A DNA stretch of 64,000 nt from an uncultured Bacillales bacterium. Its GTDB lineage: Bacteria; Bacillota_I; Bacilli_A; RF39; UBA660. The position numbers were made by a program, and so were the translations under genes. Below the pieces are notes generated by a model. It saw only the letters and a program-made list of their open reading frames with translations. It had not been told where the DNA came from and ran no database searches. Shown one piece after another: positions 21,247-55,822 of the stretch. The stretch is taken from contig CAMNEE010000001.1 in the NCBI GenBank assembly GCA_946536225.1, forward strand, positions 333,484 to 397,483, in the 5' to 3' direction. Every line of letters begins with the position of its first letter. The first letter of the stretch is position 1.

Positions 21247-21264
21247 AATGAATTAATAATTTGT

Positions 21265-21296
21265 TCAAAAAAAAGAATAGTTATGAACTATTCTTA
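21265..21296 (-). terminator. Terminator for pilB (convergent)
   Basis: Hairpin aagaatagtt / aactattctt. On the minus strand it is followed by a T-run (an A-run at 21265-21272 on plus). Confidence 0.5.
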
Positions 21297-23285
21297 TATT
21301 TTTGTTTCATTTTGAATTGTTTCTGCTGCTTTATCAAATATGCTTGCCATGTTATTAACTGGAGCACTTGGAGTTACTGGTGTAACTGGAGTAACCGGTT
21401 TAGCAGGAGTACTAGGAGTCACAGGAGTAACTGGATTAACTGGAGTACTTGGAGTCACAGGAGTAACTGGATTAACTGGAGTACTTGGAGTCACAGGAGT
21501 AACTGGATTAACTGGAGTAGCAGCAGGAGTACTTGGTGTTACAGGTTTAATTGGTGTAACTGGAGTACTAGGTGTACTTGGAGTACTCATAAGAGGAGAA
21601 CTACTTAAGAAATCTGGTAATTTATTTGCTTCTTTAGTAATTACATCTTCTTTCTTTTCTTCAACTGGTTTTGTGTTAGCAGGAGGAGCGGCTACTGGAG
21701 GAGTTGGAACTTTTGGTTCTTCCTTTTTTACTTCAGTAACAGGAGTTTTAACTTCTTCCTTCTTTTCAGAAATAGAGTTTATTTCAGCTGCTTCAAGTTG
21801 TTCTTGTAATCCAAGTTGAGTATCTGCTCCCAAGTCATCATCTAAGTCTATTAGTTTTAATACTTCATCGAATGATGTATCTCCGTGAAGACATTTTTCA
21901 AGTCCATCTTCAAGCATCGTTTTAGTTCCACCTTCACCATATACTATTTTTCTTAGTTCATGTTTACCAACATTACCTGTTATAGCATCTCTTACGGCTT
22001 GGTTAAGTAAAAGAACTTCATGTACTGCGATACGTCCTCGATAACCTTTAGAACATTCTTTACATCCAACTGGTTCGTATATTTCATTTACATCTTTACC
22101 AATTGTTTTCTTAAACATTTCTTTTTCATATTCTGTTGTTGGTCTTAGTTTTTTACATTTACTACATAGACGTCTTGCAAGTTTTTGTGAAACGATACCA
22201 GATAGAGCAGAACCTAATAGATATCTTTCAACATTCATATCTGTTAAACGTTCAATTGTATTAAGCGCGTTGTTTGTATGTATTGTACTTAATACTAAGT
22301 GACCAGTTATGGCTGATCTAACAGCTATACGTGCAGTTTCTTCATCACGAATCTCACCAATCATGATAATATCAGGGTCTTGACGTAAGATAGAACGTAG
22401 TACTGTTGCAAATGTAAGTCCTATATCAGAGTTAACCATTACTTGGTTAATACCTTCAATATTCATTTCTACTGGGTCTTCTACAGTGATTATATTAGTT
22501 TCTTCAGTATTAAGAGCTTGTAGTATAGAATATACTGTAGTAGATTTACCTGAACCAGTAGCACCTGTTACTAAGATGATACCATTTGGTAGGGACATCA
22601 TTCTCTTAATTTTTTCGATATTGTAATCTGATATATCTATATGTTCAATACCTTGATCTGACATTGTATAATCCATGATACGCATAACGACTTTTTCGCC
22701 AAGGTTAGTAGGTAAGACAGATACACGGATATCAATAGGTTGATCATTAATAGTTGTTCTTATGGCACCATCTTGAGGTACACGTGATTCAGTAATATTC
22801 ATACCTGAAATAATTTTTACACGTGTTACAAGATTTCTTTTAACATATAAAGGTACAATAGAGTAGTCATGTAATTTACCATCTATTCTTATTCTTATTT
22901 TTATACCTTCTTCAAATGGGTCCATATGAATATCGGAAACACCTTTATCAATTGCATCTAGTATTATTGAGTTTACTATATCAGTTATTGGGGTATTATT
23001 GTAATCAAAGGTAACCATGCCTGTTAATCCTGCTTCTTTAGTAGCAGCACCAGCACCAGCTGTAGCATTTGATAAATCTAATTCTTGTGCTTTAGGTTCA
23101 TCTCCAGGAAGAGCAGGAGCGTCTCCAGGTAGTTTTTGAGTAACTTCATTTCCAGGTAAAGCTGTGTTGTTAACTGGTTTTACTTCTTCAGGATTTCCTG
23201 GTAAACTAGCTGCATGTGCTTCTGTTGATGGTGCAACAGGTGTTACTGGAATATTTGTATTTTCTTTATTATCCATGATTATCAA
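21294..23285 (-). CDS. pilB: Type IV pilus / type II secretion assembly ATPase (PilB/GspE/ComGA family) with Pro/Thr-repeat C-terminal tail
   Basis: Walker A '[11 protein letters not shown]', Walker B '[13 protein letters not shown]', His box '[13 protein letters not shown]' and a tetracysteine motif 'CSKCKK...CKECSKG'. The C-terminal ~200 aa are low-complexity with ([12 protein letters not shown])n. Confidence 0.85.
21361..21590. repeat. Tandem 36-bp coding repeats (3 perfect plus degenerate flanking copies) encoding the [12 protein letters not shown] repeat of the PilB tail
   Basis: ggagtcacaggagtaactggattaactggagtactt repeats exactly at 21415, 21451 and 21487, with degenerate copies on either side. 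Confidence 0.8.
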
Positions 23286-23389: not shown

Positions 23390-26300
23390 TTAGCATGTAC
23401 TTGCAATTTTTATTGTAGTTGTTGCTAGTATTGAATTATTATTTGATCTAAGTGCAAATTTTACTGTGTATGTTTTATTATCATCTTTTAATTGTGTTGT
23501 GTTTCCTGACTCATCATATACTGTTGCAGTAACACCATAGTTTGAGTCACCTGATATATCAGCACCATTTCTAGTAATATTTACTTTAGATGAAACATTT
23601 GAGCTTCCTATGTTTCTATAAGTTATATAGTTAACACATGAGTTTCCTTTAAAACTAATTGCATAGGAATCTTGAGGTCCAGATACTTTTGCAGTTATAC
23701 CAGATGATTGGTTACATCCAAATCTTTCGTATGAAGATTTAACTGTATAAGTAACTTCACCTGAGTCAACATTAACAGTCATCGAGTTATCAGTAGTAAA
23801 TCCAATTTCTGTTGTTCCCATCGAAGTAGTCTTATAAACTCTATAACCAAATTGTCCAAATACATTATTATTATAATCTATTCTTTGTTGTAAGTATTTA
23901 TCAGCCCAAGGTTTATAAATCTTTGAATCATTGAAGTATTTAGTTAACCAATCTACACTTATAGCATTAGGTGTATCTGCTTTATTCCATGAAAGATGAA
24001 CTTTATCACCACTCTTAGTAGCTGTTAAGTTAGATGGATTCTTTAAAGTAGCAAATCTTTCTGATTCTTCACTTGGAGCAGTACCATCTTTAAAGTAAGA
24101 TGTTTCTTTTAATTCACCAGGCGTACAAGCAGATGCTAATTTAACTGGCTCACTTTGTAATTCTATTGTAGCAGTTTCCACTGTATCAGGTTTCTTAAAT
24201 TTCTTAACAAGAGGATATTTATCAGTATCATATGATCTCATTATACCTTTAGTTAATGCTTTAGTAATTTCACGTCTTGCTTGACCACCTTCAGAGTTAG
24301 ATAACCAATATTCTTTAGTAATATTATCATAACCATACCAAGTTGAAATAGAGTAGTCAGGTGAATAAGCATTAGTCCATGAGTCACCTATGATATCTCC
24401 TTTAATACCTTTTGCTCTTACTTGAGCTTCATCAACTGTTGAAGTACCAGTTTTACCAGCTATATCAACACCACTGACTCTTCCTGTTGTAACATTACCA
24501 GAAGAAACAGCATACATTAATATATCATTTATTATGAAAGCAGTGTCTTCTGACATAACTTGTACTTTCTTAGGATTTACTTGGTATTTTTCACCAGTAT
24601 CTGTAAATTCTAGTGAAGTGAATGAATGAGGTTCAATATAAGTTCCACCTCTTGCAAAAGCAGCATAAGCAGCTGATGACATAAGTGGATTTGCACCATC
24701 CCAACCACCGATAGAAGTAGTCTCTAAGATTTTTCCTCCATCTTCAATTGGATACCATCCTAAGTTATTAGCAAATTCTTTCTTTTGTTCATTTGTTGTT
24801 TGTTGGAAAGTAAGTAGAGCAGGAATATTTCTTGATTGAGCAAGTGCTTCTTTAATAGTCATTATTCCTTTTAACTTATTATCCCAGTTTTTAATATGAC
24901 CACCTACAGTATAACCATAAGTATCATCTATTATTGTTTGGGAAGATCCCCAACCAAGATACTCAATTGCAGGACCATAGTCTAGTATTGGTTTTGCAGT
25001 AGAACCAGGGTGACGTTTAATTTGAGTAGCATAGTTAAGTGTACTTGCACTCTTCTTATTACGTCCAGCACCAATAGCTACTATTGAACCATCTCTAACA
25101 CTGGTAATTGCAATACCAGCTTGTACTACATCATTTTTCCATTTATAGGTAACTCCGTTTTCAACATCGTTAACTACATCTTGTCTAACCGGATCCATTG
25201 TTGTATAGATATTCATTGATACAGCATATGGATTTTGTTTTGTTCTATCTTTTACTTCTTGTACTACAGTATCTATAAATGGAATATATCTATTTATTCC
25301 ACTTGAAGTACCTTCAACTAGTAAATCTTTAATATTTACTTTTTTAGCTTCTTCGCATTCTTCTTTAGTTATATATCCATGTCTTTCCATAAGGTTTAGA
25401 ACTATATTTTTTCTTTGATCAGCTTTTTCTGGATAACTAAAAGGATTATAAGCACTAGGTGCTTGGAATAAACCAGCTATTAAAGCAGCTTCAGGTAGAG
25501 TAAGTTCTGATGTACTCTTACCAAAGTAAACTTTAGATGCTTGTTCAACACCATGTGCTGCACCTAGAAGAGGAATATTTACATAAAACTCTAATATTTC
25601 TTCTTTAGTATATTGTTTTTCAAGTACGAATACTGAAAGGTAAATATCAGTAAACTTTCTTATAATACCTGCAATACCACTATCAACTGTACTTGTTGCA
25701 GTAAGTTTTGAAACTTGCATGGTAAGGGTAGAACCACCACCAGCATCAGAGTGACCAACAAGTTGACCAAGAACAGCTTTAGTAAATCTCGCTAAGTCTA
25801 GTCCATTATGTTGGAAGAATCTTGAGTCTTCTGTTGCAACTATAGCATCAATTAATACTTCAGGTAATTCATCATAAGAAATAACCTCTCTGTTTTCAGC
25901 ACCAAGTCTTGCAAATTCATTACCATATATATCATACAGTACTGTAGAACTTGATGAATAAAGTTTTTCTTTTGATACTTCAGGAGCATGTATTACTACA
26001 TATCCTACAAATAGAATACCTAGAATACATCCTAGTATTAGAAGAATCATTATTATAATTAATAATTTATCTCTAAAAGTTCCATACTTTAATCTTTTCT
26101 TTAATCTTGTCATATCGAAAATCATCACCTTAAATCTATTTATTAAAAATATAAGTGGCCATAAATAAAACTTGCTCTTTTCGTATTTAAGTTTTGTATT
26201 AATCATTTCTGAATAATCATCATGACGCACAATTTCTTTTCGTTCTTGTTTATTATATCTTTTTTTCGTATCCTTTTTAAGAGTAGAAGCCTTTACTTTA

Positions 26301-26539
26301 CATTTTTTCGTATCCTCTTTATAAGGTTTCTTTTTTTGATTACCTTCAAGTACAACTAGTGTTTCTTTTTTAGGTAAAACAAATTGTTCTTGTTTTTTAA
26401 CTTTTGTTTTAATTTTTCTTTTTGTAGTAGAAGTAGTAGTTTTCTTTTTAGTACTTACTTTTACCTCTTTTACATTTTTTATATTAGATGTAGTCTTTGT
26501 TGTTTTTTTCTTTCTTCTTCGTCTCTTTGTTGTTGCCAT
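23390..26539 (-). CDS. ponA: Class A penicillin-binding protein 1A (transglycosylase/transpeptidase) with ~150-aa polybasic cytoplasmic N-terminal tail and C-terminal beta-domain extension
   Basis: GT51 motif 'EDSRFFQHNGLD', transpeptidase SxxK 'GSTAKP', and a TM helix 'LLIIIMILLILGCILGILFV'. The N-terminus is K/T/R-rich ('MATTKRRRRKKKTTK...'). Directly downstream of recU, as in Bacillus. Confidence 0.85.
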   Translation of the reverse strand: MATTKRRRRKKKTTKTTSNIKNVKEVKVSTKKKTTTSTTKRKIKTKVKKQEQFVLPKKETLVVLEGNQKKKPYKEDTKKCKVKASTLKKDTKKRYNKQERKEIVRHDDYSEMINTKLKYEKSKFYLWPLIFLINRFKVMIFDMTRLKKRLKYGTFRDKLLIIIMILLILGCILGILFVGYVVIHAPEVSKEKLYSSSSTVLYDIYGNEFARLGAENREVISYDELPEVLIDAIVATEDSRFFQHNGLDLARFTKAVLGQLVGHSDAGGGSTLTMQVSKLTATSTVDSGIAGIIRKFTDIYLSVFVLEKQYTKEEILEFYVNIPLLGAAHGVEQASKVYFGKSTSELTLPEAALIAGLFQAPSAYNPFSYPEKADQRKNIVLNLMERHGYITKEECEEAKKVNIKDLLVEGTSSGINRYIPFIDTVVQEVKDRTKQNPYAVSMNIYTTMDPVRQDVVNDVENGVTYKWKNDVVQAGIAITSVRDGSIVAIGAGRNKKSASTLNYATQIKRHPGSTAKPILDYGPAIEYLGWGSSQTIIDDTYGYTVGGHIKNWDNKLKGIMTIKEALAQSRNIPALLTFQQTTNEQKKEFANNLGWYPIEDGGKILETTSIGGWDGANPLMSSAAYAAFARGGTYIEPHSFTSLEFTDTGEKYQVNPKKVQVMSEDTAFIINDILMYAVSSGNVTTGRVSGVDIAGKTGTSTVDEAQVRAKGIKGDIIGDSWTNAYSPDYSISTWYGYDNITKEYWLSNSEGGQARREITKALTKGIMRSYDTDKYPLVKKFKKPDTVETATIELQSEPVKLASACTPGELKETSYFKDGTAPSEESERFATLKNPSNLTATKSGDKVHLSWNKADTPNAISVDWLTKYFNDSKIYKPWADKYLQQRIDYNNNVFGQFGYRVYKTTSMGTTEIGFTTDNSMTVNVDSGEVTYTVKSSYERFGCNQSSGITAKVSGPQDSYAISFKGNSCVNYITYRNIGSSNVSSKVNITRNGADISGDSNYGVTATVYDESGNTTQLKDDNKTYTVKFALRSNNNSILATTTIKIASTC

Positions 26540-27228: not shown

Positions 27229-27816
27229 ATGAAAATAACTAGTTCTAATTTAGAAACAATTGCTGTTAGAATGAGTCAATATCCAACTGATCATAGAGAT
27301 GAGTTTATGCTATGCGGAAGAAGTAATGTAGGTAAGAGTAGTTTTATTAATACCATATTAGGTAGAAAAAACTATGCTCATACTTCTGCAAAACCAGGTA
27401 AAACACAATCACTTAATTTCTATTTAATTAATGATGATTTTTATTTAGTAGATGTACCTGGATATGGATATGCTGATGTATCTAAAGAAAAACAACAAAA
27501 GTTTGGTTTAATGATAGAAGAATATATTAAAACTAGATCTAATCTAAGATGTGTATTCTTACTTGTAGATTTTAGACATAAACCTGATGAAAATGATTGT
27601 TTAATGTATAATTTCTTAAAATACTATGAAATACCAACCGTTGTAGTTGCAACTAAATTTGATAAAGTAAAACCATCTGTTAGAGATAAACAAGAAAAAA
27701 TATTAAAAGATACATTAAAACTACTACCTGATGATAAGCTTGTATTATTCTCAAGTGTTACTAAAAAAGGTAGAGAAGATGTATATGGCATATTGTCAAA
27801 TTATTTAAAGAAATAA
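27229..27816 (+). CDS. engB: Ribosome biogenesis GTPase EngB (YsxC/YihA)
   Basis: G1 'GRSNVGKSSFIN', 'DVPGYGY', and 195 aa. Confidence 0.85.
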   Translation: MKITSSNLETIAVRMSQYPTDHRDEFMLCGRSNVGKSSFINTILGRKNYAHTSAKPGKTQSLNFYLINDDFYLVDVPGYGYADVSKEKQQKFGLMIEEYIKTRSNLRCVFLLVDFRHKPDENDCLMYNFLKYYEIPTVVVATKFDKVKPSVRDKQEKILKDTLKLLPDDKLVLFSSVTKKGREDVYGILSNYLKK

Positions 27817-27869: not shown

Positions 27870-28391
27870 ATGAAAAAGAATGGTTTTACATTAGTAGAAT
27901 TACTTGCTGTTTTAGTTATTTTAGGATTATTAATTACACTTGCAGTGCCTAATATATTAGGTGTATCTAAGAATGTTAAAGAAAAGAGTTATCAAACTAA
28001 GATTGAAATAATTGAAAATGCTGCAATTACATATACAAGTGATACAGTTAAAAAGAGTCTTCAAAATCTAAACGATACTGCTATGGTTGGATATTATTGG
28101 ATAAATGTTAGTAAAGATAGTGATGATAATAAGACTGTTAATGCTAAAGCTACAAAGGATGCAACACATATTTATCCAGCTAAAGTTTTTACTGTTCAAG
28201 AACTTGCTGATGCTCGTGAAATTGATTATGATGATGAAGATAACAAAAGTGTAATTAATCCAGTTAATAATAAATCTATTAATGCATGTAATGTTTATGT
28301 TTATTTAAAAAACAATCGTGTATATTCTGTATTTGATAGAGTAAATTGTAATAGTAAAGTTAAGAGTACAGCTGTTAGGCTAGAAAAATAA
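27870..28391 (+). CDS. Type IV prepilin / pseudopilin (class III signal peptide)
   Basis: N-terminus 'MKKNG|FTLVELLAVLVILGLLITLAV' has F+1, E+5 and a hydrophobic helix. 173 aa. Extended -10 TGTTAATAT at 27845-27853. Confidence 0.8.
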   Translation: MKKNGFTLVELLAVLVILGLLITLAVPNILGVSKNVKEKSYQTKIEIIENAAITYTSDTVKKSLQNLNDTAMVGYYWINVSKDSDDNKTVNAKATKDATHIYPAKVFTVQELADAREIDYDDEDNKSVINPVNNKSINACNVYVYLKNNRVYSVFDRVNCNSKVKSTAVRLEK

Positions 28392-28487
28392 TTTTGAATT
28401 TTATAAACACGCTTCCAAAGGGTCTAAATGTTGATATTTAGGCTCTTTTATGTTATCATAAATTGACTTAATGAAGGGGTGAAGAAC

Positions 28488-29798
28488 ATGAGAAAAACTG
28501 TTTGTTTAGTTGGAAGACCTAACACTGGAAAATCTTCTTTATTTAATAGAATGGTTATGCAAAATAAAGCTATTATTTCTGATATAGCTGGTACTACTCG
28601 TGATAGACTATATGGTATTTGTTATCATAAAGATAAATCTTTTAATGTTATTGATACAGGTGGTATAGATTTAGAACATGCAGACTTTAATACTAATATT
28701 AAAATGCAAGCTCAACTTGCTATAGATGAAGCTGATGTAATAGTATTTGTTGTTGATGGTAAAGAAGACTTAACTCAAAATGACTTTGCTGTTCGTAATA
28801 TGCTTTTAAGAACTGATAAAAAGGTAGTAGTAGCTATTAATAAAATAGATAATCCTGAAAGAGAAGATAATATTTATAACTTCTATGAATTAGGATTTGA
28901 ACATATGGTTACCATCTCAGTTGAACATAAAAGACATATTGAAGAATTACTTGATATGATTACTGAAGACTTTGGTCCTTATACTACAGAACCAAGAGAT
29001 GAAGTATGTAGATTCTCGCTTATTGGTAGACCTAATGTTGGTAAGTCTTCACTTGTTAATGCTATTCTTGGTGAAGATAGACAAATTGTAAGTGATGTTG
29101 AAGGTACTACAAGAGATGCAAGTGATTCTAAGTTTACTTATAATAAACAAGACTATGTTGTTGTTGATACAGCAGGTATGAGAAAACGTGGAAAGATATA
29201 TGAAGACTTAGAGAAGTATTCTATTATAAGAGGACTAAGAGCAATTGAAAGAAGTGACGTTTGTTGCGTTTTAATAGATGCGTCTGTTGGTATTATTGAA
29301 CAAGATAAACATATCGTACAAATTGCTTTGGAAAATAATAAAGCCATAGTACTTGTTGTTAATAAATGGGATACCGTTAAGAATAAAGATCAAGCTTTAA
29401 AAGAATGGAAACAAAAAATAGAAAAAGAATTTCAATTTATTCCATATGTTAGAACAGTATTCTTAAGTGCTAAAGAAAGAACTAAGATAAATGATTTAAT
29501 GGAAGCTATTATTAAAGCATATGAATCATATACTAAAGAAGTTAAAACTAGTACTTTAAATGATATTGTTAATGATGCTTATGCTCTTCATATGGCTCCA
29601 AGTTATAAGAAGAGAAGACTTAAAATATACTTTGTAACTCAAACTGATATTTGCCCTCCAAGATTTACTTTTAATGTAAATAGTAAAGGATTAGTACATT
29701 TTAGTTATAAGAGATATTTAGAAAATCAAATAAGAGCTAATATAGATTTAGAAGGAACACCTATCGTTATACAATTTAAGAATAAAGGTGATGAATAA
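28488..29798 (+). CDS. der: Ribosome-associated GTPase Der (EngA), double GTPase
   Basis: Two G domains, 'VGRPNTGKSSLFN' and 'IGRPNVGKSSLVN', plus a KH-like C-terminus. ATG 28488 lies 5 nt after GAAGGGGTGA; the track start at 28479 is GTG. Confidence 0.9.
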   Translation: MRKTVCLVGRPNTGKSSLFNRMVMQNKAIISDIAGTTRDRLYGICYHKDKSFNVIDTGGIDLEHADFNTNIKMQAQLAIDEADVIVFVVDGKEDLTQNDFAVRNMLLRTDKKVVVAINKIDNPEREDNIYNFYELGFEHMVTISVEHKRHIEELLDMITEDFGPYTTEPRDEVCRFSLIGRPNVGKSSLVNAILGEDRQIVSDVEGTTRDASDSKFTYNKQDYVVVDTAGMRKRGKIYEDLEKYSIIRGLRAIERSDVCCVLIDASVGIIEQDKHIVQIALENNKAIVLVVNKWDTVKNKDQALKEWKQKIEKEFQFIPYVRTVFLSAKERTKINDLMEAIIKAYESYTKEVKTSTLNDIVNDAYALHMAPSYKKRRLKIYFVTQTDICPPRFTFNVNSKGLVHFSYKRYLENQIRANIDLEGTPIVIQFKNKGDE

Positions 29799-32056: not shown

Positions 32057-32099
32057 ATAAATATTCTAGTGTATAATTAAATCAGAATAGGTGAATAGT

Positions 32100-32996
32100 A
32101 TGAAAAAGAATGTATTTTATGTATTACTTTTGTTTGTTGCAGCAATAGTAATTGCTGGAAGTAGTTATATATATAGTTCTTACTCTCTTGATAGTTATCC
32201 TATTAATAAAGAAGGAAACTATTATATAACAGGAGGGAAGGGAGTAATACTTAATGGTATTAGTTGTTATTTATCTGACTATTCATCTAATAACTATGAT
32301 AGATCAACTTCTCTAATTAATAGTTATAGTAATCCAAATCATAAAGATACATATTTATTTAAAGTTAATAAATCCTCTAATGGATATAACTGTGATATGT
32401 TTCCTTATAAAGCAGGTACAGTTACTATCCAATGTAACAAAAATTATATAAATACTGGTGAGAGTACAAGTTGTACTGCTAAAAGTGTTACTTCAAGTGA
32501 TGGAGTAAAGTCTGTTAGTTTTAAAGTGTCTACAGATAAGTTAGTACTAAAGAACTTTTCTTCTAATTATTTTGAAGTAGTAGATAATAATGATAAAACT
32601 TATACTTTTGTTGCTAAGAGAAATAATCTACTTTCTAACACTGAATATCTACTTGCTGCTTTTGATATTGTTAATAATGGTGAGTATGATGGACATGATA
32701 ATAGTATTAGTTTTAATAATATTACTTATGTAGATAATATAGTGTCTTTAGATGTTGGTAGTTCAACTCTTGTATTTACTGAAGGAAAAGGTAGGGAAGA
32801 AGAGAATACAACTTCAAGTGGAACTACTACAACTACTGTTACACATGCAGTTACTGAAGGAATAGGTAATATGCCTAAGACAGGAGAGTCTCATGGTATT
32901 AGTGGAGTAGTTGCAGTTTTGTTAACTGTATTTATTGCAACTATGTCTATTGCACTTGGAATATTAATTACTACTATTTTTAAGAAAAAGAATTAA
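32100..32996 (+). CDS. Cell-surface protein with LPXTG-like sorting signal (MPKTG)
   Basis: Signal peptide. C-terminal 'NMPKTGESHG', then a hydrophobic stretch, then 'KKKN'. Confidence 0.55.
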   Translation: MKKNVFYVLLLFVAAIVIAGSSYIYSSYSLDSYPINKEGNYYITGGKGVILNGISCYLSDYSSNNYDRSTSLINSYSNPNHKDTYLFKVNKSSNGYNCDMFPYKAGTVTIQCNKNYINTGESTSCTAKSVTSSDGVKSVSFKVSTDKLVLKNFSSNYFEVVDNNDKTYTFVAKRNNLLSNTEYLLAAFDIVNNGEYDGHDNSISFNNITYVDNIVSLDVGSSTLVFTEGKGREEENTTSSGTTTTTVTHAVTEGIGNMPKTGESHGISGVVAVLLTVFIATMSIALGILITTIFKKKN

Positions 32997-47456: not shown

Positions 47457-47485
47457 TTGTTATATTAAACTTCTTAATTTATAAT
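47457..47485 (+). promoter_or_regulatory. Putative promoter of the giant-pilin operon (TTGTTA-17-TATAAT)
   Basis: -35 at 47457-47462 and -10 at 47480-47485. Confidence 0.4.
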
Positions 47486-47511: not shown

Positions 47512-48675
47512 ATGAAGGATAAAAACGGATTTATTGCTACATCAGTTTTGTATGCTTTTTTACTTTGTTTCCTTACTTTATTCTTAGCTTATATGGCTAA
47601 CTATATTCAAAATAAATTATTGATTGATAGGGTTGCTGATTTAGCAAAAGAAGATTTATCAAAATATAATAATACTTATGTTACAGATCTTGCTTTAGGA
47701 GATTATGTAATTTTCGATACAATTGATCCTGAAGGAGCAGATGCTTTATCAGGAGTTAAAGTGTATGATTCTCCAATTAGTCCAGATGCTAGATGGATTC
47801 TATTTAAAATAGAAGGTGGAGATTTAATAGATAAAAATGAGGGTAAGTATGAAGACTCAGTATACTATTTTGTATCTGATTCAACTGCTCAAAAATATCA
47901 ACCTTTAGTTAATTCACTTGCACTTGATAATAGTGGAGCTTATGCACCTATTACAGATAATACTAATTTAAATACTAATACATACAGTCCAAATTTAAAA
48001 AATATTGAAAGAGTTTTAAACAGTCATATATATTATTCATCAAGAAAGTATTGGTCTTCAGCAGAAGCGGATGAAACTGCAAAAACTGCGTATAAATATG
48101 CATTCCCATATACTGCAAATGGTGGAATAACAGATATTAGATATTTAAATGATGATGACTTAAATGAAATATTAAGTTTAAATGATAATGTTGTTGATGC
48201 AATTATGGATCAAGGAGATAAGTTTGTATTCTGGAACACTGGTACTTATTTTGACAGTACAAGACGTGGATTTACGGTTTATAAAAGAGAATATTTAGAA
48301 TTCCTTGGACCAACTGATACTAATAGTGGTACTAATCCAGCCGAAGTTAACAGAATATGTCATACAAGTGGTGCTTCTTCTAATGGAGGTATTATAGACT
48401 TTAGCAATAATAGTGGTAATGACTTAAGTTATGGGCATTTATATTCAGGTATAATTGGACAAAACTTTGTTGATTATTGCTATTATGTAACAAATGATAC
48501 TTTAGGAGATTGCCAAGATAGTAGTAATTATATTTGTAGAAGCAGTAATGGAGAGTATCCTCCTAGATTTGTTGTGGTATTAACTGTTAATAAAGGTAAT
48601 CTTGTTAGAAATGGTAGAGCGGACTCTGGAAATGGAACAGCTACATTACCATATTTATTTACAACGGGGGCATAG
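47512..48675 (+). CDS. Pilin-like protein lacking Glu+5 (PilX/ComGG/GspK-like minor pseudopilin), 387 aa
   Basis: 'MKDKNG|FIATSVLYAFLLCFLTLFLAYMA' is a class III signal-like N-terminus with Ser at +5. First of three co-oriented, tightly spaced genes. Confidence 0.55.
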   Translation: MKDKNGFIATSVLYAFLLCFLTLFLAYMANYIQNKLLIDRVADLAKEDLSKYNNTYVTDLALGDYVIFDTIDPEGADALSGVKVYDSPISPDARWILFKIEGGDLIDKNEGKYEDSVYYFVSDSTAQKYQPLVNSLALDNSGAYAPITDNTNLNTNTYSPNLKNIERVLNSHIYYSSRKYWSSAEADETAKTAYKYAFPYTANGGITDIRYLNDDDLNEILSLNDNVVDAIMDQGDKFVFWNTGTYFDSTRRGFTVYKREYLEFLGPTDTNSGTNPAEVNRICHTSGASSNGGIIDFSNNSGNDLSYGHLYSGIIGQNFVDYCYYVTNDTLGDCQDSSNYICRSSNGEYPPRFVVVLTVNKGNLVRNGRADSGNGTATLPYLFTTGA

Positions 48676-48677
48676 AT

Positions 48678-51464
48678 ATGAGAAAGAAAAATGGATTTGT
48701 TTTAATCGAAACATTAATTGTAGTTTTATTATTAACAGTTACTTTGATGTCACTTTATTCTTCTTTTGCATATTTAGTTAATAAATCAAAAGAAAGAAAT
48801 AATCATGATTCAATAGAAACAATATATAAAACTTACTATGTTAAAAGTTTAATTGATGCAACTTATGCTACAGCTGCAACATCTCGTTTTAAAGAATCAT
48901 TTAGATATTATGCAAGTACATATTCTACAAATGATACTGGATTAAACCCAATATGTAAGGCATTCGATTATGCAGGTAATAAACTTTCTTATTCCAATTA
49001 TATAAGTAATTATGATTCAAGCGATAAGATAGCAAGTTTTATAGTTTGCTCATATGATGAATATAAAACTATTGCATCATATACAGAAGAAGAATTAAAT
49101 GCTAATCCTTCTTTAAAAGAAAAAGCAAAAATTATCAAGAATGATCCATTGTTTAATGCGATTGCTACATATGGAATTGAAAAAATGTATTATATAAATA
49201 CTAATAGATTACAAAAGAGCCAAGGTATGGCTAAAGAAGCTTTAAATGCTGCATTTGATGCATCATCTATTAATTATGTAAATACACTAGATAGTAATGA
49301 AAATAATGACAAACTTATTATTAAATATGAAAAACCATTTGTTTATCCAGCAGGTTTTGATACTACTGATTTAGAGCTACTTATAAGTAAAGAAGCCTCT
49401 CATTCATCTGTATCTATGACAGATGTAAGTAAAAAAGAAGGCTCTTATCCAGTTTTCTTCTATCCTAAAGAAGGAGAAAGAGGAGAAGCGTTCTCGGGTG
49501 GAGATGTCTTCAATGGTGAGTCATTTACAGTTAGCGCCGGATTATTTACAGATTTAGAGGAATTTGGTGGTAAAACAATTATTGGATGGTCAACTAAGTC
49601 AGGTCTTACAGCTGATGAATTAAATACTTGCGTTGAGAGTACAAATAATGGTACTGCAACTGAAGTTCTATGTTATTATGCTAATACAAGTGTAAAAGCA
49701 ACAGATAATAATAGAACACTTTATGCTGTTTGGTGTGGTGATAATACTATTGATGGTATTATGAAATGTAATTCAGGAGTACTTGATAATTTAAAAGAAA
49801 CTGTTGTTGATGGTGTTACAACTTATTATTATGATGGAAAAAATAGTAATAAACCATTAGGAAACTATTATGTTTATACAGAAAGCAAAGTTAATGGTGA
49901 ACCAAAGCTTGTTGGTCAACCATGCTTCCAATTAATGAGTAATTTTGGATCTTCAACAGGGTTTAAAGCTATATATGCTGGTTTATATGATTCTGCCACG
50001 GGATGTGATGTTACAAATAAATCTATAAATAATTCAAGTTATGCTTTTTCTAATGCTACTGGTATTGCAGGTGCTGGATATACATATTATAGAGATAGTA
50101 AAAGAATAGAAGCACCAATGGATTATTGGTCATTTTTAAGATCGTTCAATATTTATAAATATACTGGTAGTATGTATGCTAATTCTTCAGATGCTCCTTT
50201 AAAACTTGGCGAATATGTATATTTATCCAAAGGTTATAAAAATAAGAATGGAGTTTTTTCGTTAGATGATACTGCCGTTAGGGTATTATTTGATGATTAC
50301 TTAACAAATGATTATAAAGATTTAATTAATATGATTTCGTCTCAAGGTTTAAAATATTTTTGCATGGATTCGTCTAAAACTGAGTGTGGTAATGAAATTG
50401 CTCGATTAAATGGTTCTATTACAACCCAATCTACTGGTGGTAAACTAATTATAAAATATAATTATGACTCATTTAAACAACCTTTTGATCCTAACAGCAT
50501 GTCAAAATATAAAAGTCAGTTTTCATCAGAAATAAGATATGATAGTGAAAAAGGACAATATTACTTGCCAGCGGAAACTAGTGTAATATATTCTATGACC
50601 GATGCTCAAACACCAAGTAAAATGTTTAAAAATAGGTATTATTGTACTGGTAAATTAGTATCAGATGATGCTGGTGTTACTAATTTATATTGTAATAATG
50701 GTTATACGTTTATTTTTGGTATGTCTAGTAGTGGTACTGGAACTTCATACTATAGAATAATTTACAGTAATAGTGACTCTCCTGAGTCTACTCCTCCAAA
50801 TTTATTTAATTATACATTTGGTTCGGTTGAACAAAGAACAAAGGATTCAAATGCAAAAGCAGCTATTGATAAATGGTTTGAAAAATATTTTTCTCATTAT
50901 GACGAAATACTTGATACAAAGGCTGTTTATTGTAATGACTTTTCACCTAAAGTATATTCATATGGCAATTCAGAATATAGTTGGTATAATGGTTTTACTA
51001 ATAGTTATTTCTACTATAATGGTTCGACTGATATTTATTCTCCACAAAATTCCGATAAATTTTACTATGGCGCTAATAATGAGAAGAGGTTTAGTCAGTT
51101 TACTGCGTGTGATACTCAATATGCCTATAGTTATAAGGATAGTGATAATCTAGGTAATCATTTGCTTAAATATCCTGTTGGTATGCTTACTGGGCAAGAA
51201 TATTTTGCTGTTGGAGCTTCTACTAAGAATTATTTGAGTGACTCATCAACGTATTTTTTAATGAATCCTTACCGTTATGGTTCGTCAAGTGGTTCTATTT
51301 ATGGACATTTAACTCTTGATAGTCGCGAATATAGTTTAGGTATTGATTATTGGAACACAAATAGTTCTTATTGGTTAAGACCAGTTATATCTATAAAAAT
51401 TGATGCTCCAATTTCAGGTGGTGCAGGAACTGTTAAAGATCCATTTATTTTATATGGTAAATAG
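48678..51464 (+). CDS. Giant modular type IV prepilin-like protein (928 aa)
   Basis: 'MRKKNG|FVLIETLIVVLLLTVTLM' has F+1 and E+5, a canonical prepilin peptidase site. A Ser/Thr/Tyr-rich beta-type extracellular region follows. Confidence 0.7.
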   Translation: MRKKNGFVLIETLIVVLLLTVTLMSLYSSFAYLVNKSKERNNHDSIETIYKTYYVKSLIDATYATAATSRFKESFRYYASTYSTNDTGLNPICKAFDYAGNKLSYSNYISNYDSSDKIASFIVCSYDEYKTIASYTEEELNANPSLKEKAKIIKNDPLFNAIATYGIEKMYYINTNRLQKSQGMAKEALNAAFDASSINYVNTLDSNENNDKLIIKYEKPFVYPAGFDTTDLELLISKEASHSSVSMTDVSKKEGSYPVFFYPKEGERGEAFSGGDVFNGESFTVSAGLFTDLEEFGGKTIIGWSTKSGLTADELNTCVESTNNGTATEVLCYYANTSVKATDNNRTLYAVWCGDNTIDGIMKCNSGVLDNLKETVVDGVTTYYYDGKNSNKPLGNYYVYTESKVNGEPKLVGQPCFQLMSNFGSSTGFKAIYAGLYDSATGCDVTNKSINNSSYAFSNATGIAGAGYTYYRDSKRIEAPMDYWSFLRSFNIYKYTGSMYANSSDAPLKLGEYVYLSKGYKNKNGVFSLDDTAVRVLFDDYLTNDYKDLINMISSQGLKYFCMDSSKTECGNEIARLNGSITTQSTGGKLIIKYNYDSFKQPFDPNSMSKYKSQFSSEIRYDSEKGQYYLPAETSVIYSMTDAQTPSKMFKNRYYCTGKLVSDDAGVTNLYCNNGYTFIFGMSSSGTGTSYYRIIYSNSDSPESTPPNLFNYTFGSVEQRTKDSNAKAAIDKWFEKYFSHYDEILDTKAVYCNDFSPKVYSYGNSEYSWYNGFTNSYFYYNGSTDIYSPQNSDKFYYGANNEKRFSQFTACDTQYAYSYKDSDNLGNHLLKYPVGMLTGQEYFAVGASTKNYLSDSSTYFLMNPYRYGSSSGSIYGHLTLDSREYSLGIDYWNTNSSYWLRPVISIKIDAPISGGAGTVKDPFILYGK

Positions 51465-51478
51465 AAAGGACAAATAAT

Positions 51479-54400
51479 ATGAAAAGAAATTATAATCAAT
51501 CTGGTATGACTATTATTGAAGTATTAGTAAGTGTAATAATTATTTCATTTGTAATGAGCTTATTATTTGTTCTTCTATTACAAGTACAAAATGCTAATAG
51601 TGCTGCTAAGAAGAAATCAAATCTTTTGATTTCTCAAGCAGTAATTACTAAAGCAATTGAGCAAGATATGATTGAAATAGGTGTTAGTGCTGTTTCAGCA
51701 TGTACATATGATGATTTTAATATGTTTAGTAATCAGATTGATGAAAGCGAACCATATGCTTGTGCTAGGTTAGAGTTTAATAAATCATATGATATTAATG
51801 ATTTGGGTTACATCATGGTTTATAAGCAAAATGAAAATGCTTATGATAATGCCACTTGGGTAGTTAAATATGCAAGAGGTTATTATGATAACTGTGTTAT
51901 GGGAAATTCACCAAGTGATGGTAGTTCTTGGATTGAGTCATATAGTGTTGTTCAAAAACTTAATAATGATGTAACACTTGGTAGTTTTGTTGATAGAGTT
52001 ACAGGTAAAACTAGATATGTTTCTCTTAATTATTCAGCAGAATATGATCCTACTGAAAAGTATAGTAGACAAAAAGTTAATTCTGCTAATATAGTTATTC
52101 CTATTGTTGATAGTAATAATTATCACTATGATATAGATTTATCTTTCTCATTTAGATTATATTACCCAGATGAGACTGATCCTTCTAAAGCAAAACAAAG
52201 AATAGATTTTGTTTGCGATGACGAGGGAGTTGATTGTGTATGTACTTCTTCTAAGGATGAAAATTGTAATAAAACATATTCATCAAATCTTCCTGGAAGA
52301 ACAAAAAGTGAAACAGATAAGACATATAATTACACTTGTACTGCAACTAAGAAGTCTGTTTCTACTTCAATGGGAATTAACAAAGATTTCTTGACATTAA
52401 GTAATGTTAATAAGGCAGGTATTGTGCCAGATAATGTTAGAAAAATTACGTTTAGTAATTCGTTGGACTCTAATGGGTTTGGTGGATATGGTATAGATGT
52501 ATCTCTTGCTCAAAACAAGACATCTATTTTATATTACGAATTTGACGATAATACAGATACATACGATATAATGATTGGTCAATCTGGTGGCGTTACTGTT
52601 GCTGGTAAGAGCATGGCTAACATGTTTGCTGATTGTATAAGGTTAGAATCCATTAATTTTAAAAATTTTAGTTCCAATGGAATTGAAGATATGAAGAATT
52701 TATTTAAAAATTGTGAAAAACTTACTAATGATGGTATAGACGGATTTTTAAATCTAAATTTCGATGGTGTAAGAAAAATGTCTGCTATGTTTAAGGGATG
52801 TAAACGTATTACTGTATCTCCATTTAGACAATCATCTGGTGATGCATTTAATTTAAGTAGTTTAGTGGATGCTTTTGAAATGTTTTCTAATAGTGGATTA
52901 ACTGAGTTTATTTATTATAAGGATTTGTGGTGTGATAATGTTACATCATTCTTACGTTTGCTTAGTGATTCAAATATACAAACTGTTGTAATTGGAGATA
53001 TTTCTCGTAGTGTTTCTATGAATAATTTGAATTCTATGGCGCATATGCTTGATAATTGTAATAGTTTGACAACATTTAAACTTATTAATTGTAATTTTCC
53101 AGCTTTAAATACTATTGAAAGAATTTGTTTTCATGTAAGCTCATCCAATGTTTCGGTTATGAGTGCCTTAGGAACATATAATTCTGAAACACATGTATAT
53201 TCTGGTGGTGGAATGCAATTTGTAAATTTATACACTCCTAATTTGGAAAATCTTTCTTATGCATTTTACTATGAAAAAATTAATTCAAGTTTGAATATTA
53301 GTAATTGGACGATTGTAAATAATTATAATGCTGACCATATGTTTTTTGGAGCAGGTTTAACAGCGTTTTCATTTGGCGATGATGCGTTTGGAACAGAAGG
53401 ATATGGTGGTCCATACAATGGCTCTTATATGTTTTATAATTGTAGTATAAAGAAATTAATTAATAATGATACAAGAGAATCGGTATTAATTCATGCTAAT
53501 TATATGTTTTATTATAATTATTTGGATACTATTGATGGTGGTTTTTATTTACCAAATGTAGTTGATTGCACTTCTATGTTTAGTACAGCAGGACCTTCTT
53601 CCAAGGCTGTATTTAACTATATTAAAGAAGGATCTTTATCCAAGTGTGAAAAGTTTACTAATATGTTTTTGGCTACACGTTATCAGGTTATTTATTTAGA
53701 CAATATTAATAGTGAAGTAACCGAAGGTACTGTTTCATGTGTTAATATGTTTGCTGCTGGTAGTTCGAGTGGTAAAAACACTTTGAAAAATGTTTATATG
53801 AGAAATGCTAATTTTAAAACGAGAGTTTCTATGTCTTCAATGTTTGCATATAATTGGTCACTTAGATTTGTTGACTTTGACTATGTTAAAGGGGACTGGG
53901 ATAATAACAAGTATTATGACGGAACATATACATATTATGGAATGGATACTCCTGATACTAGTGATGATACAAATATTGATCATATAGGAAATTTTGAAAA
54001 TTTCTTTGATAAAGATTCCTCGGCGGCTATACCGGGTTCTATGGAAAAAATGTTTTTTAACTGTTCTTCTTTAAGGGGACTTCCAGACAATTTCTTTAGC
54101 ACGATGAATATAAAGAGTGTATCTAACTGTACCGCCATGTTTGAATATGCTGGTGTTGAAGCAATTTTAGGTGGTATAAGAAATAAATTTGGAGTATTAT
54201 TAGATTTTGATTTTAATTCAAATCCTGTTTTACCTTATATGTTTCATGGTGTTGATAATTTCTCTTATATTAAATTACCAAAATTAACTAAGTCTACTAA
54301 TCTCGTAGATATGTTTAATAATGTTGGAGGTAATAGTGATCGTATAACAGATTTAACCATTGATTTATCTTCTTTAACAACTAATCTTGATACTTTTATT

Positions 54401-54562
54401 TCTACAGGATTTAGTGGAAAAGGACAAGTACCAATTAAGATTATTACTAAAGCAAATCAAACAGTAGCTTGTAGCGTTTATAATACTCTTAAGAGTAAAT
54501 ATCCAAGTGTAACTGTTACATATACAGATGGTGTTACTGTCTTAGATCCAACAAAATGCTAA
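51479..54562 (+). CDS. Giant modular type IV prepilin-like protein (1027 aa) with C-terminal DUF285-like 'MF..C..L' repeat domain
   Basis: 'MKRNYNQSG|MTIIEVLVSVIIISF' has M+1 and E+5. From aa ~380 there are ≥8 repeats of the form 'MFADCIRLESINF', 'MFKGCKRIT', 'MLDNCNSLTTF', 'MFYNCSIKKL', 'MFFNCSSLRGL' and 'MFEYAGVEA'. Confidence 0.7.
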   Translation: MKRNYNQSGMTIIEVLVSVIIISFVMSLLFVLLLQVQNANSAAKKKSNLLISQAVITKAIEQDMIEIGVSAVSACTYDDFNMFSNQIDESEPYACARLEFNKSYDINDLGYIMVYKQNENAYDNATWVVKYARGYYDNCVMGNSPSDGSSWIESYSVVQKLNNDVTLGSFVDRVTGKTRYVSLNYSAEYDPTEKYSRQKVNSANIVIPIVDSNNYHYDIDLSFSFRLYYPDETDPSKAKQRIDFVCDDEGVDCVCTSSKDENCNKTYSSNLPGRTKSETDKTYNYTCTATKKSVSTSMGINKDFLTLSNVNKAGIVPDNVRKITFSNSLDSNGFGGYGIDVSLAQNKTSILYYEFDDNTDTYDIMIGQSGGVTVAGKSMANMFADCIRLESINFKNFSSNGIEDMKNLFKNCEKLTNDGIDGFLNLNFDGVRKMSAMFKGCKRITVSPFRQSSGDAFNLSSLVDAFEMFSNSGLTEFIYYKDLWCDNVTSFLRLLSDSNIQTVVIGDISRSVSMNNLNSMAHMLDNCNSLTTFKLINCNFPALNTIERICFHVSSSNVSVMSALGTYNSETHVYSGGGMQFVNLYTPNLENLSYAFYYEKINSSLNISNWTIVNNYNADHMFFGAGLTAFSFGDDAFGTEGYGGPYNGSYMFYNCSIKKLINNDTRESVLIHANYMFYYNYLDTIDGGFYLPNVVDCTSMFSTAGPSSKAVFNYIKEGSLSKCEKFTNMFLATRYQVIYLDNINSEVTEGTVSCVNMFAAGSSSGKNTLKNVYMRNANFKTRVSMSSMFAYNWSLRFVDFDYVKGDWDNNKYYDGTYTYYGMDTPDTSDDTNIDHIGNFENFFDKDSSAAIPGSMEKMFFNCSSLRGLPDNFFSTMNIKSVSNCTAMFEYAGVEAILGGIRNKFGVLLDFDFNSNPVLPYMFHGVDNFSYIKLPKLTKSTNLVDMFNNVGGNSDRITDLTIDLSSLTTNLDTFISTGFSGKGQVPIKIITKANQTVACSVYNTLKSKYPSVTVTYTDGVTVLDPTKC

Positions 54563-54581: not shown

Positions 54582-54610
54582 ATGTTATAATTCTTTTTAT
54601 GGTGAGGAAG

Positions 54611-55612
54611 ATGAAAGTATTTATTAATTACTTATTAAATATATTTAAGAAGAATTTTATTAGTATTATTTTTCTTATATTTATTATATGTGTTATATAT
54701 ATAAAAGTACCTTATACAGTATATTGTCCAGGTGGAACTATTAATATAGAAGAACGCCTTAGTAATCCTGTTTATAAGAGTAAAGGTTCTATTAATTTAA
54801 CATATGTTAGTACTTTAGATGGAAATTTAGTTACATACCTTTTAGGTTTAATTTTACCTAATTGGGATTTAGTTAAAAATGAAGAAAGACTTATGATAGA
54901 TGAAGATATGGAAGAGTTAACTTTAAGAGAAACTATATCTTTATATGAGTCTATTTCTAATGCTACATATAATGCTTATGGTGCTGCTGGAATAGATGTA
55001 AATATAACAAGTAAAAATTTTTATGTTTATTATATTTTAAAAGAAAGGGCCGAAACTACTTTAAAAATAGGAGATAGAATTATTAGTTATGATGGCGTTA
55101 ACTATGATGAACAAACTAATCTTTTAGAATACATTAGTAAAAAGAATGTTGGAGATAAAATAAACTTTAAAGTAGATAGATTTGGTAAGAACGTAGATAC
55201 ATATGCTGTTGTTAAAGAAATAGAAGGTAGAAAAATAATAGGTATAGTAATTGATACTATATTTAATTATGATAATAAACCTGATGTTAAATATAGTTAT
55301 CATGAAAGTGAAATAGGTTCTTCTGGTGGGTTAATGCTTTCTTTATCAATTTATAATGCTTTAGTAGAGAAAGACATTACAAAAGGACGTAAGATAAGTG
55401 GAACAGGTACAATTGATTTAGATGGTAATGTTGGTCCAATTGGAGGAGTAACTTATAAAATAAAAGGAGCTGTAGATGGTAAAAGTGATATATTTATAGT
55501 TCCAAGTGAAAACTTCAAGGAAGCAAAAGACTATATAAAGAAGAAAAAATATAAAATTAAATTAATAAAAGCAGAAAACTTTAAACAAGTGTTAGATAGT
55601 CTTGATAAGTAG
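54611..55612 (+). CDS. YlbL-like membrane-anchored PDZ/Lon-S16 peptidase
   Basis: N-terminal TM helix. Lon proteolytic-domain motifs 'SGGLMLSLSIYNAL' (catalytic Ser) and 'GTGTIDLDGNVGPIGGVTYKIKGA...IFIVPSEN'. ATG 54611 follows GGTGAGGAAG. Confidence 0.7.
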   Translation: MKVFINYLLNIFKKNFISIIFLIFIICVIYIKVPYTVYCPGGTINIEERLSNPVYKSKGSINLTYVSTLDGNLVTYLLGLILPNWDLVKNEERLMIDEDMEELTLRETISLYESISNATYNAYGAAGIDVNITSKNFYVYYILKERAETTLKIGDRIISYDGVNYDEQTNLLEYISKKNVGDKINFKVDRFGKNVDTYAVVKEIEGRKIIGIVIDTIFNYDNKPDVKYSYHESEIGSSGGLMLSLSIYNALVEKDITKGRKISGTGTIDLDGNVGPIGGVTYKIKGAVDGKSDIFIVPSENFKEAKDYIKKKKYKIKLIKAENFKQVLDSLDK

Positions 55613-55621
55613 GAGGGTATT

Positions 55622-55822
55622 ATGAATAAAGAAAATAAAAGTGGTAATTTAGATTTATCTAAAATAAATGCCGAAGATTTTCAAAAGGAAATTGAAGATA
55701 TAAGAAAAAAGTTAGACTTTAGTAATATTATAAATGATATAGATAAATATTTAACTAAGTTAGAAATAGAACAAGGTATAAAAGATAAAGATGGTAATAT
55801 TATAAAGAAAGAGGAAAAGTAA
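55622..55822 (+). CDS. Small hypothetical protein (66 aa)
   Basis: Strong RBS AGGAGGG 6 nt upstream. Charged, helical composition. Confidence 0.4.
   Translation: MNKENKSGNLDLSKINAEDFQKEIEDIRKKLDFSNIINDIDKYLTKLEIEQGIKDKDGNIIKKEEK

Follow-up and report, generated by a model that had tools for sequence, protein, structure and literature searches.

What is an array of DUF285 repeats doing on a protein that starts like a type IV pilin? This question is raised by a 1027-amino-acid (aa) protein encoded in a 64,000-nucleotide (nt) stretch of DNA, hereafter the window, which corresponds to positions 333,484–397,483 (forward strand) of contig CAMNEE010000001.1 (assembly GCA_946536225.1). The source is an uncultured Bacillales rumen bacterium (GTDB lineage Bacillota_I; Bacilli_A; RF39; UBA660). 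The G+C content of the window is 25–30%, and the region has an identical copy on a 696-kb metagenome scaffold. DUF285 is found in mycoplasma lipoproteins, Gram-positive surface proteins, algae, and giant viruses, and to our knowledge it is a widespread repeat without an established molecular function. The gene in question (51479..54562, + strand), whose ATG is preceded by the Shine-Dalgarno-like sequence AAGGA, encodes a pilin module of approximately 250–280 aa, a linker, and a DUF285/leucine-rich repeat (LRR) solenoid of approximately 730 aa. The protein is probably a modular minor type IV pilin. By analogy with characterized relatives of both parts, the DUF285 module is most likely a pilus-borne binding module.

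According to the original prediction, a prepilin N-terminus carries an array of DUF285 repeats, and this fusion is borne out by two Pfam matches above the gathering cut-offs. DUF285 (PF03382; cut-off 25 bits) covers aa 378–472 with 31.2 bits (E = 2e-7), and N_methyl (PF07963; cut-off 21.2 bits) covers aa 6–30 with 24 bits. Fifteen full-length homologues of about 1000 aa were found; most of them have a precomputed PF03382 match, and several have PF07963 as well. The five MF-type motifs quoted earlier are all present in the open reading frame (ORF): MFADCIRLESINF at aa 382, MFKGCKRITV at aa 437, MLDNCNSLTTF at aa 523, MFYNCSIKKL at aa 651, and MFFNCSSLRGL at aa 858. The previously proposed span of the array, 52620–54330 (aa 381–951), begins at the first MF anchor and ends at the last. 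The existence of the array is thus confirmed, but the count of "at least eight" repeats was too low. The array (52595..54358, +; aa 373–960) contains approximately 17 units, 14 with exact MF anchors and 3 degenerate (LF at aa 408, ML at aa 523, and YA at aa 594). They are tandem units of about 24–31 aa with the "MF..C..L"-type signature of DUF285. The spacing is mostly 24–34 aa, and three longer gaps of 55–71 aa largely overlap low-confidence loops of the AlphaFold2 (AF2) model.

Repeats of this kind might be a compositional artefact of AT-rich coding sequence, with a spurious DUF285 match. The low G+C content of the window fits this idea, and so does the fact that only aa 378–472, the first four or so repeats, are picked up by Pfam, while the later repeats have diverged beyond the model (12.5 and 10.7 bits). 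However, aa 370–1027 contain 14 MF dipeptides, against 2.1 ± 1.4 (maximum 8) in 5000 shuffles. In this region there are 21.3 MF per 1000 aa, compared with 0.84 in the 24 control ORFs taken from elsewhere in the AT-rich window. This enrichment over both shuffles and control ORFs refutes the artefact, the probability of which is negligible. In the full-length homologues P0005, P0006, P0012, and P0013, DUF285 is matched with 45–94 bits in 2–5 stretches. Tandem Repeats Finder detected no DNA-level tandem repeat in the array, so the repeats exist in the protein only, and DNA-level tandem or PARCEL-like repeats were excluded. An origin from phage tail fibres or defence systems was also rejected, as there was no PHROGs match and the PADLOC match was sub-threshold (14.7 bits).

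The fold of the array agrees with the LRR-like structure that had been suggested for comparison. The AF2 model of the whole protein (mean predicted local distance difference test score, pLDDT, 73.5) predicts aa 300–1027 as a confident LRR-type solenoid with one short strand per repeat and pLDDT mostly 85–95. The array is flanked by an N-terminal cap (52376..52594, +; aa 300–372) with predicted strands at aa 320–326, 349–356, and 361–368 (pLDDT 62–90), and by a C-terminal cap (54359..54559, +; aa 961–1027) recognized from the model and from conservation, with helices at aa 970–977 and 994–1005 plus strands (pLDDT 82–87). Cys1027, the terminal residue, is conserved without exception across the 16 homologues, and Cys is the consensus residue near position 998 (54470..54559). 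A disulfide between Cys998 and Cys1027 probably closes off the C-terminal cap. Judged from the model, the closest solved folds are those of BspA-type LRR surface proteins. The relation is at the fold or clan level only: LRR_5 (PF13306; cut-off 27.7 bits) has no match in the 1027-aa protein and reaches 16.3 bits in the homologue P0006.

The N-terminal part has the features of a class III signal. A short polar leader, MKRNYNQSG (51479..51505, +), ends in Gly9, after which cleavage is predicted. The mature sequence, MTIIEVLVSVIIISFVMSLLFVLLL, starts with MTIIE and provides a hydrophobic stretch of approximately 20 aa with Glu at position +5. In an alignment of 16 family members with identity down to 33%, Gly9 (−1) and Glu14 (+5 of the mature protein) are invariant, and there are many further invariant residues, including eight Cys, in the first ~370 aa. 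The hydrophobic helix alpha1 (51506..51679, +; aa 10–67) is modelled as a helix at aa 12–67. It is the most conserved part of the protein, with 64–76% identity in distant homologues. The globular part of the module (51680..52252, +; aa 68–258, with C246, C253, and C255) follows, with predicted strands at aa 69–74, 94–100, 109–117, 127–136, and 151–161 and a beta-sheet region extending to about aa 255. The predicted arrangement of helix and strands is that of a pilin. The linker between the pilin module and the cargo (52253..52375, +; aa 259–299, with the invariant C263 and C287) shows 22–34% identity in distant homologues, and most of aa 259–297 has pLDDT below 50 (segments 259–283 and 291–297).

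At the end of the pilin module lies an invariant cluster of cysteines, C246-x6-C253-x-C255-x7-C263 plus C287 (52214..52339; aa 246–287). The same cluster is present in a stand-alone 260-aa pilin of the comparison locus L004 (L004 2609..3391), and it is modelled at low confidence. These cysteines may form a disulfide knot or bind a metal, a point of note given the strict-anaerobe habitat.

The 1027-aa pilin gene is the last of three close-set pilin-like genes, separated by 2 and 14 nt. All three genes have a Shine-Dalgarno-like sequence; a promoter-like site is seen at 47457–47485, and the next terminator-like site is at 55807. The product of the first gene (47512..48675, +) is a pilin-like protein of 387 aa. 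Its class III signal is degenerate: the leader MKDKNG is followed by the mature sequence FIATS, and Glu5 is missing. Its N-terminus, KNGFIATS.LYAF, is invariant in four loci, and Ser always replaces Glu at +5. No Pfam family was found in this protein. The second gene (48678..51464, +) encodes a 928-aa protein with the leader MRKKNG and the mature sequence FVLIE. Its N_methyl score, 13.1 bits, is below the cut-off. The residues G6, F7, and E11 are invariant in 14 homologues, and alignments to pilins of other loci, described below, characterize it as a second modular pilin.

The gene order Lon, the trio, an S16/PDZ protease, and MutS is kept in L001 and L003, which are goat-rumen and other gut Bacilli metagenome-assembled genomes (MAGs). 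L004 has the trio and then the protease, with one oppositely oriented gene between them. Minor pilins that are encoded together, one of them without Glu5, are a feature of tip-complex genes, and this arrangement is found in L001, L003, and L004 as in the window.

The protease is a SepM/YlbL-like S16 (Lon_C) and PDZ membrane protease (54599..55612, +). Its gene is seen downstream of the pilin genes in every locus examined (L001 13079..14095; L003 13091..14098; L004 4259..5257; L008 10714..11712; L009 11619..12647), also where the pilins are short. One oppositely oriented ORF separates the pilin genes from the protease in L004 and L009. The adjacency may reflect backbone synteny, or the protease may be linked to the pilins in function, for instance by processing them or their cargo.

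The comparison of loci indicates that pilin carriers and their cargo are separable. An exhaustive HMMER search with aa 1–340 of the 1027-aa pilin against 1.84 billion representatives returned 117 clusters. Most of these are 190–280 aa long; about 90 are stand-alone pilin modules, and six are proteins of about 1000 aa with DUF285. Ten other long members were scanned: six carry DUF6273, one carries ALK_LTK_GRD (ALK/LTK glycine-rich), and one carries a cadherin-like domain. L004 has the same gene order as the window with short proteins of 364 aa (without Glu5), 183 aa, and 260 aa. The 260-aa pilin aligns to aa 9–283 of the 1027-aa pilin (30% identity, E = 3e-35) and stops at the equivalent of aa 283. 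The 183-aa pilin aligns to aa 1–221 of the 928-aa protein (E = 9e-22). The other end of the 928-aa protein, aa 690–925, aligns to the DUF6273-bearing C-terminus of a 1001-aa pilin of L007 (E = 4e-9), in which it is a pilin module of the 1027-aa type that carries DUF6273. A short pilin of the 1027-aa type is found in L008 within the same Lon-to-MutS neighbourhood, and L009 has short paired pilins followed by the S16/PDZ protease. A pilin module joined by a linker to a domain that is not pilus-specific is what is called a modular pilin, and both the 1027-aa family and its relatives show this organization.

Carrier and cargo also differ in divergence. Among close homologues, the pilin module is 92–100% identical and the LRR array 71–73%. 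Among distant homologues, the carrier is 42–76% identical, whereas the array is 22–29% identical; the N-terminal cap (33–49%) is better conserved than the repeats. Carrier and cargo swapping within one lineage supports the view of modular pilins as products of "evolutionary tinkering".

The 387-aa and 928-aa proteins both end with a "G.GT...P(Y/F)(L/I)" motif (48600..48672 and 51390..51461), and a similar end, GTGTSDDPFVV, is seen in the DUF6273-type pilin of L007 (L007 7125..10130). Because of this shared ending, the Glu5-less 387-aa protein may carry a DUF6273-like module, too. BLAST gave no such link at E ≤ 1e-3. L007 is an Erysipelotrichaceae MAG, and its 1001-aa modular pilin has N_methyl and DUF6273, with an internal duplication. 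The gene lies approximately 1.3 kb downstream of a Tad-like set (L007 2111..5868) composed of a ParA-like gene, a gene for a 441-aa T2SSE ATPase, and two T2SSF genes, with an FtsW/RodA-like gene in between. Given this Tad-like set near a modular pilin, the type of machinery used by this pilin family may differ between lineages.

Two genes elsewhere in the window could belong to the filament system. One (21294..23285, −) encodes a 663-aa filament assembly ATPase of the PilB/GspE class (Pfam T2SSE, 409 bits). Its NCBIfam scores are 472 bits for GspE, 465 for PilB, and 264 for ComGA, all under the equivalog cut-offs. The other (27870..28391, +) encodes a canonical 173-aa pilin with the leader MKKNG and the mature sequence FTLVE, which scores 29.2 bits for N_methyl and 29.5 bits for TIGR02532, the NCBIfam prepilin N-terminal domain (cut-off 16.3 bits). 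Its ComGC (43.2 bits) and GspG (41.6 bits) scores are under the cut-offs. This pilin is a candidate for the major pilin of the same filament system. Its gene sits alone between engB-like (27229..27816) and der/engA-like (28479..29798) GTPase genes. The type IV filament genes are dispersed on the chromosome rather than gathered in one locus.

The ATPase gene is isolated as well, with neither a platform nor a peptidase gene adjoining. The ATPase has long low-complexity extensions, among them a C-terminal Pro/Thr-rich repeat tract, an uncommon feature in an assembly ATPase of the cytoplasm. This repeat tract probably gives rise to the ORFs on the opposite strand (21261..21608 and 21340..21819) as artefacts. 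Concerning the cell envelope, a 301-aa protein (32091..32996, +) has an LPXTG-like sortase signal at its C-terminus, made up of MPKTGE, a hydrophobic segment, and a basic tail, and a class A penicillin-binding protein is encoded at 23390..26539 (−). These two genes together indicate that the organism is walled, although the nearest DUF285 lore concerns the wall-less Mollicutes.

Several observations weigh against a modular minor pilin. The TIGR02532 score of the 1027-aa protein is 15.1 bits, a marginal miss of the cut-off, and its +1 residue is Met, where Phe is usual. The pilin module of the AF2 model is only moderately confident (pLDDT about 50–84). A sequence profile search of the PDB with the pilin module returned pilin N-termini only, all non-significant (E > 0.05); a family-profile search of PDB sequences gave nothing significant; and Foldseek against the PDB gave no significant match, with TLR1 and InlA on top (E = 0.02–0.15). 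The pilus genes are scattered, and no gene for a platform protein (PilC/T2SSF) or a prepilin peptidase (PilD/Peptidase_A24) is present among the window ORFs of at least 120 aa, as judged by Pfam scans, precomputed Pfam calls for 37.4–60.8 kb, and reading of the translations elsewhere. Finally, tip location, complex formation, ligand, and adhesion are proposed by analogy with known systems. Some of these points would suit a protein whose prepilin-like N-terminus is a mere membrane anchor or export signal, so that a helix-tethered surface LRR protein is made and never polymerised. The N_methyl motif is short, a cargo of ~80 kDa is very large for a filament subunit, and DUF285 proteins are usually lipoproteins or wall-anchored. 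However, Gly−1 and Glu+5 are invariant even in homologues of 33% identity, and the homology to small stand-alone pilins covers the whole module of 250–280 aa, beyond the helix. The pilin fold is predicted, and the operon to which the gene belongs is conserved and includes two further pilin-like genes, one without Glu5. Published modular pilins with cargo of a comparable kind do assemble into pili (PMC8179133, PMC9934059). A mere anchor is therefore considered unlikely.

Alternatively, the trio could be minor pseudopilins of a short pseudopilus of the competence (Com) or secretion type, with the cargo serving for DNA or substrate capture or for wall penetration. The weak NCBIfam matches of the trio N-termini are to ComGD, ComGE, ComGF, and PilV, and those of the 173-aa pilin include ComGC (43 bits) and GspG (42 bits). 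N-terminal GspII domains are lacking in the ATPase, whose ComGA score of 264 bits falls short of the cut-off of 300. There are few pilus genes, they lie apart from one another, and the window showed no PilT. Yet the Com and Gsp equivalog cut-offs are all missed, and the matches are confined to the generic N-terminal helix. The best ComG scores are 16.6 (ComGE) and 13.0 bits (ComGF) for the 1027-aa pilin and 21.4 bits (ComGD) for the 928-aa protein, where the cut-offs for ComGD, ComGE, ComGF, and ComGG are 49–80. The ATPase scores higher for GspE and PilB than for ComGA. The gene without Glu5 comes first, as in pilABC of Streptococcus sanguinis and unlike comGD-GG, in which the Glu5-less ComGG comes last. 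The binding reported for BspA/DUF285 LRRs is to protein or mucin, not to DNA (PMC5071367, PMC8707762). A pseudopilus thus appears improbable, to a similar degree as the anchor. Attempts to place the trio pilin modules in one of the H, I, J, K, or ComG families failed as well, with scores far under the cut-offs.

The modular minor pilin remains the preferred reading, and a mechanism can be proposed for it. A prepilin peptidase would cleave the leader of the 1027-aa pilin after Gly9. The three pilin modules of the trio would form a priming complex, with the Glu5-less 387-aa subunit incorporated first. With a small major pilin, for example the 173-aa one, as the building block, the PilB-like ATPase would polymerise the filament, and the priming complex would end at the tip of this type IV filament. 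There, the solenoid of DUF285 repeats and the 928-aa protein's cargo would be displayed as binding "wings". The ligand of the fast-evolving LRR array would be a protein or glycoprotein exposed on a surface in the rumen, such as the host epithelium, another microbe, or a feed particle, and the role of the array would be adhesion. Of the host- or surface-binding role proposed at the outset, binding is retained as the most reasonable function for DUF285 on a pilus, while adhesion and tip location of the 1027-aa pilin are extrapolated from analogous systems.

More tentatively, the trio might be a PilABC-like priming and tip complex of a rumen Bacilli lineage, in which cargo (DUF285 LRR or DUF6273-like) has been exchanged between two different pilin carriers and the array is a rapidly diversifying ligand-binding "wing". 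If this model is true, DUF285 would for the first time be placed in a defined context of presentation, with a tractable route to its ligand, and the cargo would be the largest proposed so far for a pilin. What DUF285 binds can be asked cleanly in such a system, where it sits on a pilin beside a second cargo pilin and a partner without Glu5. The locus also bears on how monoderm type IV filaments accommodate very large cargo.

The combination of DUF285 with a pilin had been taken as previously unknown. This part of the original prediction does not hold. Modular pilins were introduced by Raynaud et al. 2021 in PNAS (PMC8179133). Dataset S1 of that study already contains nine architectures of IPR012902 (N_methyl) with IPR005046, in 22 proteins (9 + 4 + 2 + 2 + 1 + 1 + 1 + 1 + 1). 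It also contains IPR012902 with IPR026906 in 29 proteins, the single-domain form being the 7th most frequent architecture, and IPR026906 is named among the 15 most frequent architectures in Fig. 8 (PMC8179133). According to the database entries, IPR005046 is DUF285/PF03382 and IPR026906 is the BspA-type LRR. A binding role for DUF285 is not a new idea either, since experimental adhesion data have been published. A Lactococcus lactis protein with DUF285, MucBP, and Big_3 contributes to adhesion to mucin and polystyrene (PMC5071367), and the DUF285 protein MbovP0145 of Mycoplasma bovis binds beta-actin (PMC8707762). In view of these counts and adhesion data, the novelty of the fusion fails. The suggested "new pilus tip-adhesin class" is not opened, because the architecture (22 DUF285 and 29 BspA-LRR proteins) and the concept are published (PMC8179133) and the organism is uncultured. 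Our literature search found no dedicated study of BspA/DUF285 pilins, the architecture appearing only as Dataset S1 counts. The 1027-aa pilin family is a further uncharacterised case of the published modular-pilin architecture.

How does this case relate to the known systems? Like the modular pilins of Raynaud et al., the 1027-aa protein has a class III signal and a pilin module followed by a non-pilus domain, with the same pair of InterPro signatures. Some of the DUF285 pilins in Dataset S1 have a Rib domain (PF08428) between the pilin and DUF285 (PMC8179133). The Rib domain is absent in the 1027-aa pilin, and its array is unusually long (~17 units, 730 aa).

BspA-type LRR proteins include adhesins. 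Those compared here are PDB 4fs7, 4fdw, 4gt6, and 4h09, BspA of Tannerella, the pneumococcal PcpA (4cp6), and TpLRR (6mlx). The 1027-aa protein differs from them in having no significant PF13306 match and in its repeat signature, "MF..C..L", which is that of DUF285. The anchor is also different: a pilin module here, and a lipobox, choline-binding repeats, a type IX secretion signal, or LPXTG in the BspA-type proteins. The same repeat family, judged by hidden Markov model, is found in the DUF285/PARCEL lipoproteins of the Mycoplasma mycoides cluster, Mycoplasma agalactiae, and M. bovis and in Gram-positive surface proteins (PMC2996958, PMC8707762, PMC5071367). These are variable surface proteins, and binding or adhesion is reported for two members. 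They are lipoproteins or wall-anchored, and repeats at the DNA level are stressed for the PARCELs, whereas such repeats are undetectable in the 1027-aa pilin gene.

The HIJK set of diderm type IV pili with the PilY1/PilC adhesin and GspHIJK of type II secretion resemble the trio, as proposed here, in having an operon-encoded priming or tip complex with one subunit without Glu5 and, at the tip, an adhesin. The trio has three genes rather than four, its matches all stay below the cut-offs of the H, I, J, and K families, and the putative adhesin is fused to pilins rather than being a separate PilY1. A further parallel is S. sanguinis, like the present organism a monoderm, in which PilA (without Glu5), PilB (vWA), and PilC (lectin) have an experimentally supported tip-complex model, as for HIJK (PMC8179133, PMC9934059); GspK, like PilA, is without Glu5 (PMC9934059). 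Both have a three-gene minor-pilin operon in which the first product lacks Glu5 and the two others are modular pilins with bulky C-terminal modules, putatively for binding in the trio. Sequence homology to PilABC is undetectable, the trio is outside a pil locus, and its complex is a predicted one. The cargo in S. sanguinis is a vWA domain and a concanavalin-like lectin, whereas here it is the DUF285 LRR and a module of ~700 aa ending DUF6273-like. The cargo here is about twice the S. sanguinis size, and the Glu5-less protein has 387 aa in comparison with PilA of ~16 kDa. Four features are specific to the 1027-aa pilin family: it is restricted to a narrow group of Bacilli from gut and rumen, its array is very long, it is paired with a second giant modular pilin, and there is clear evidence that cargo has been swapped.

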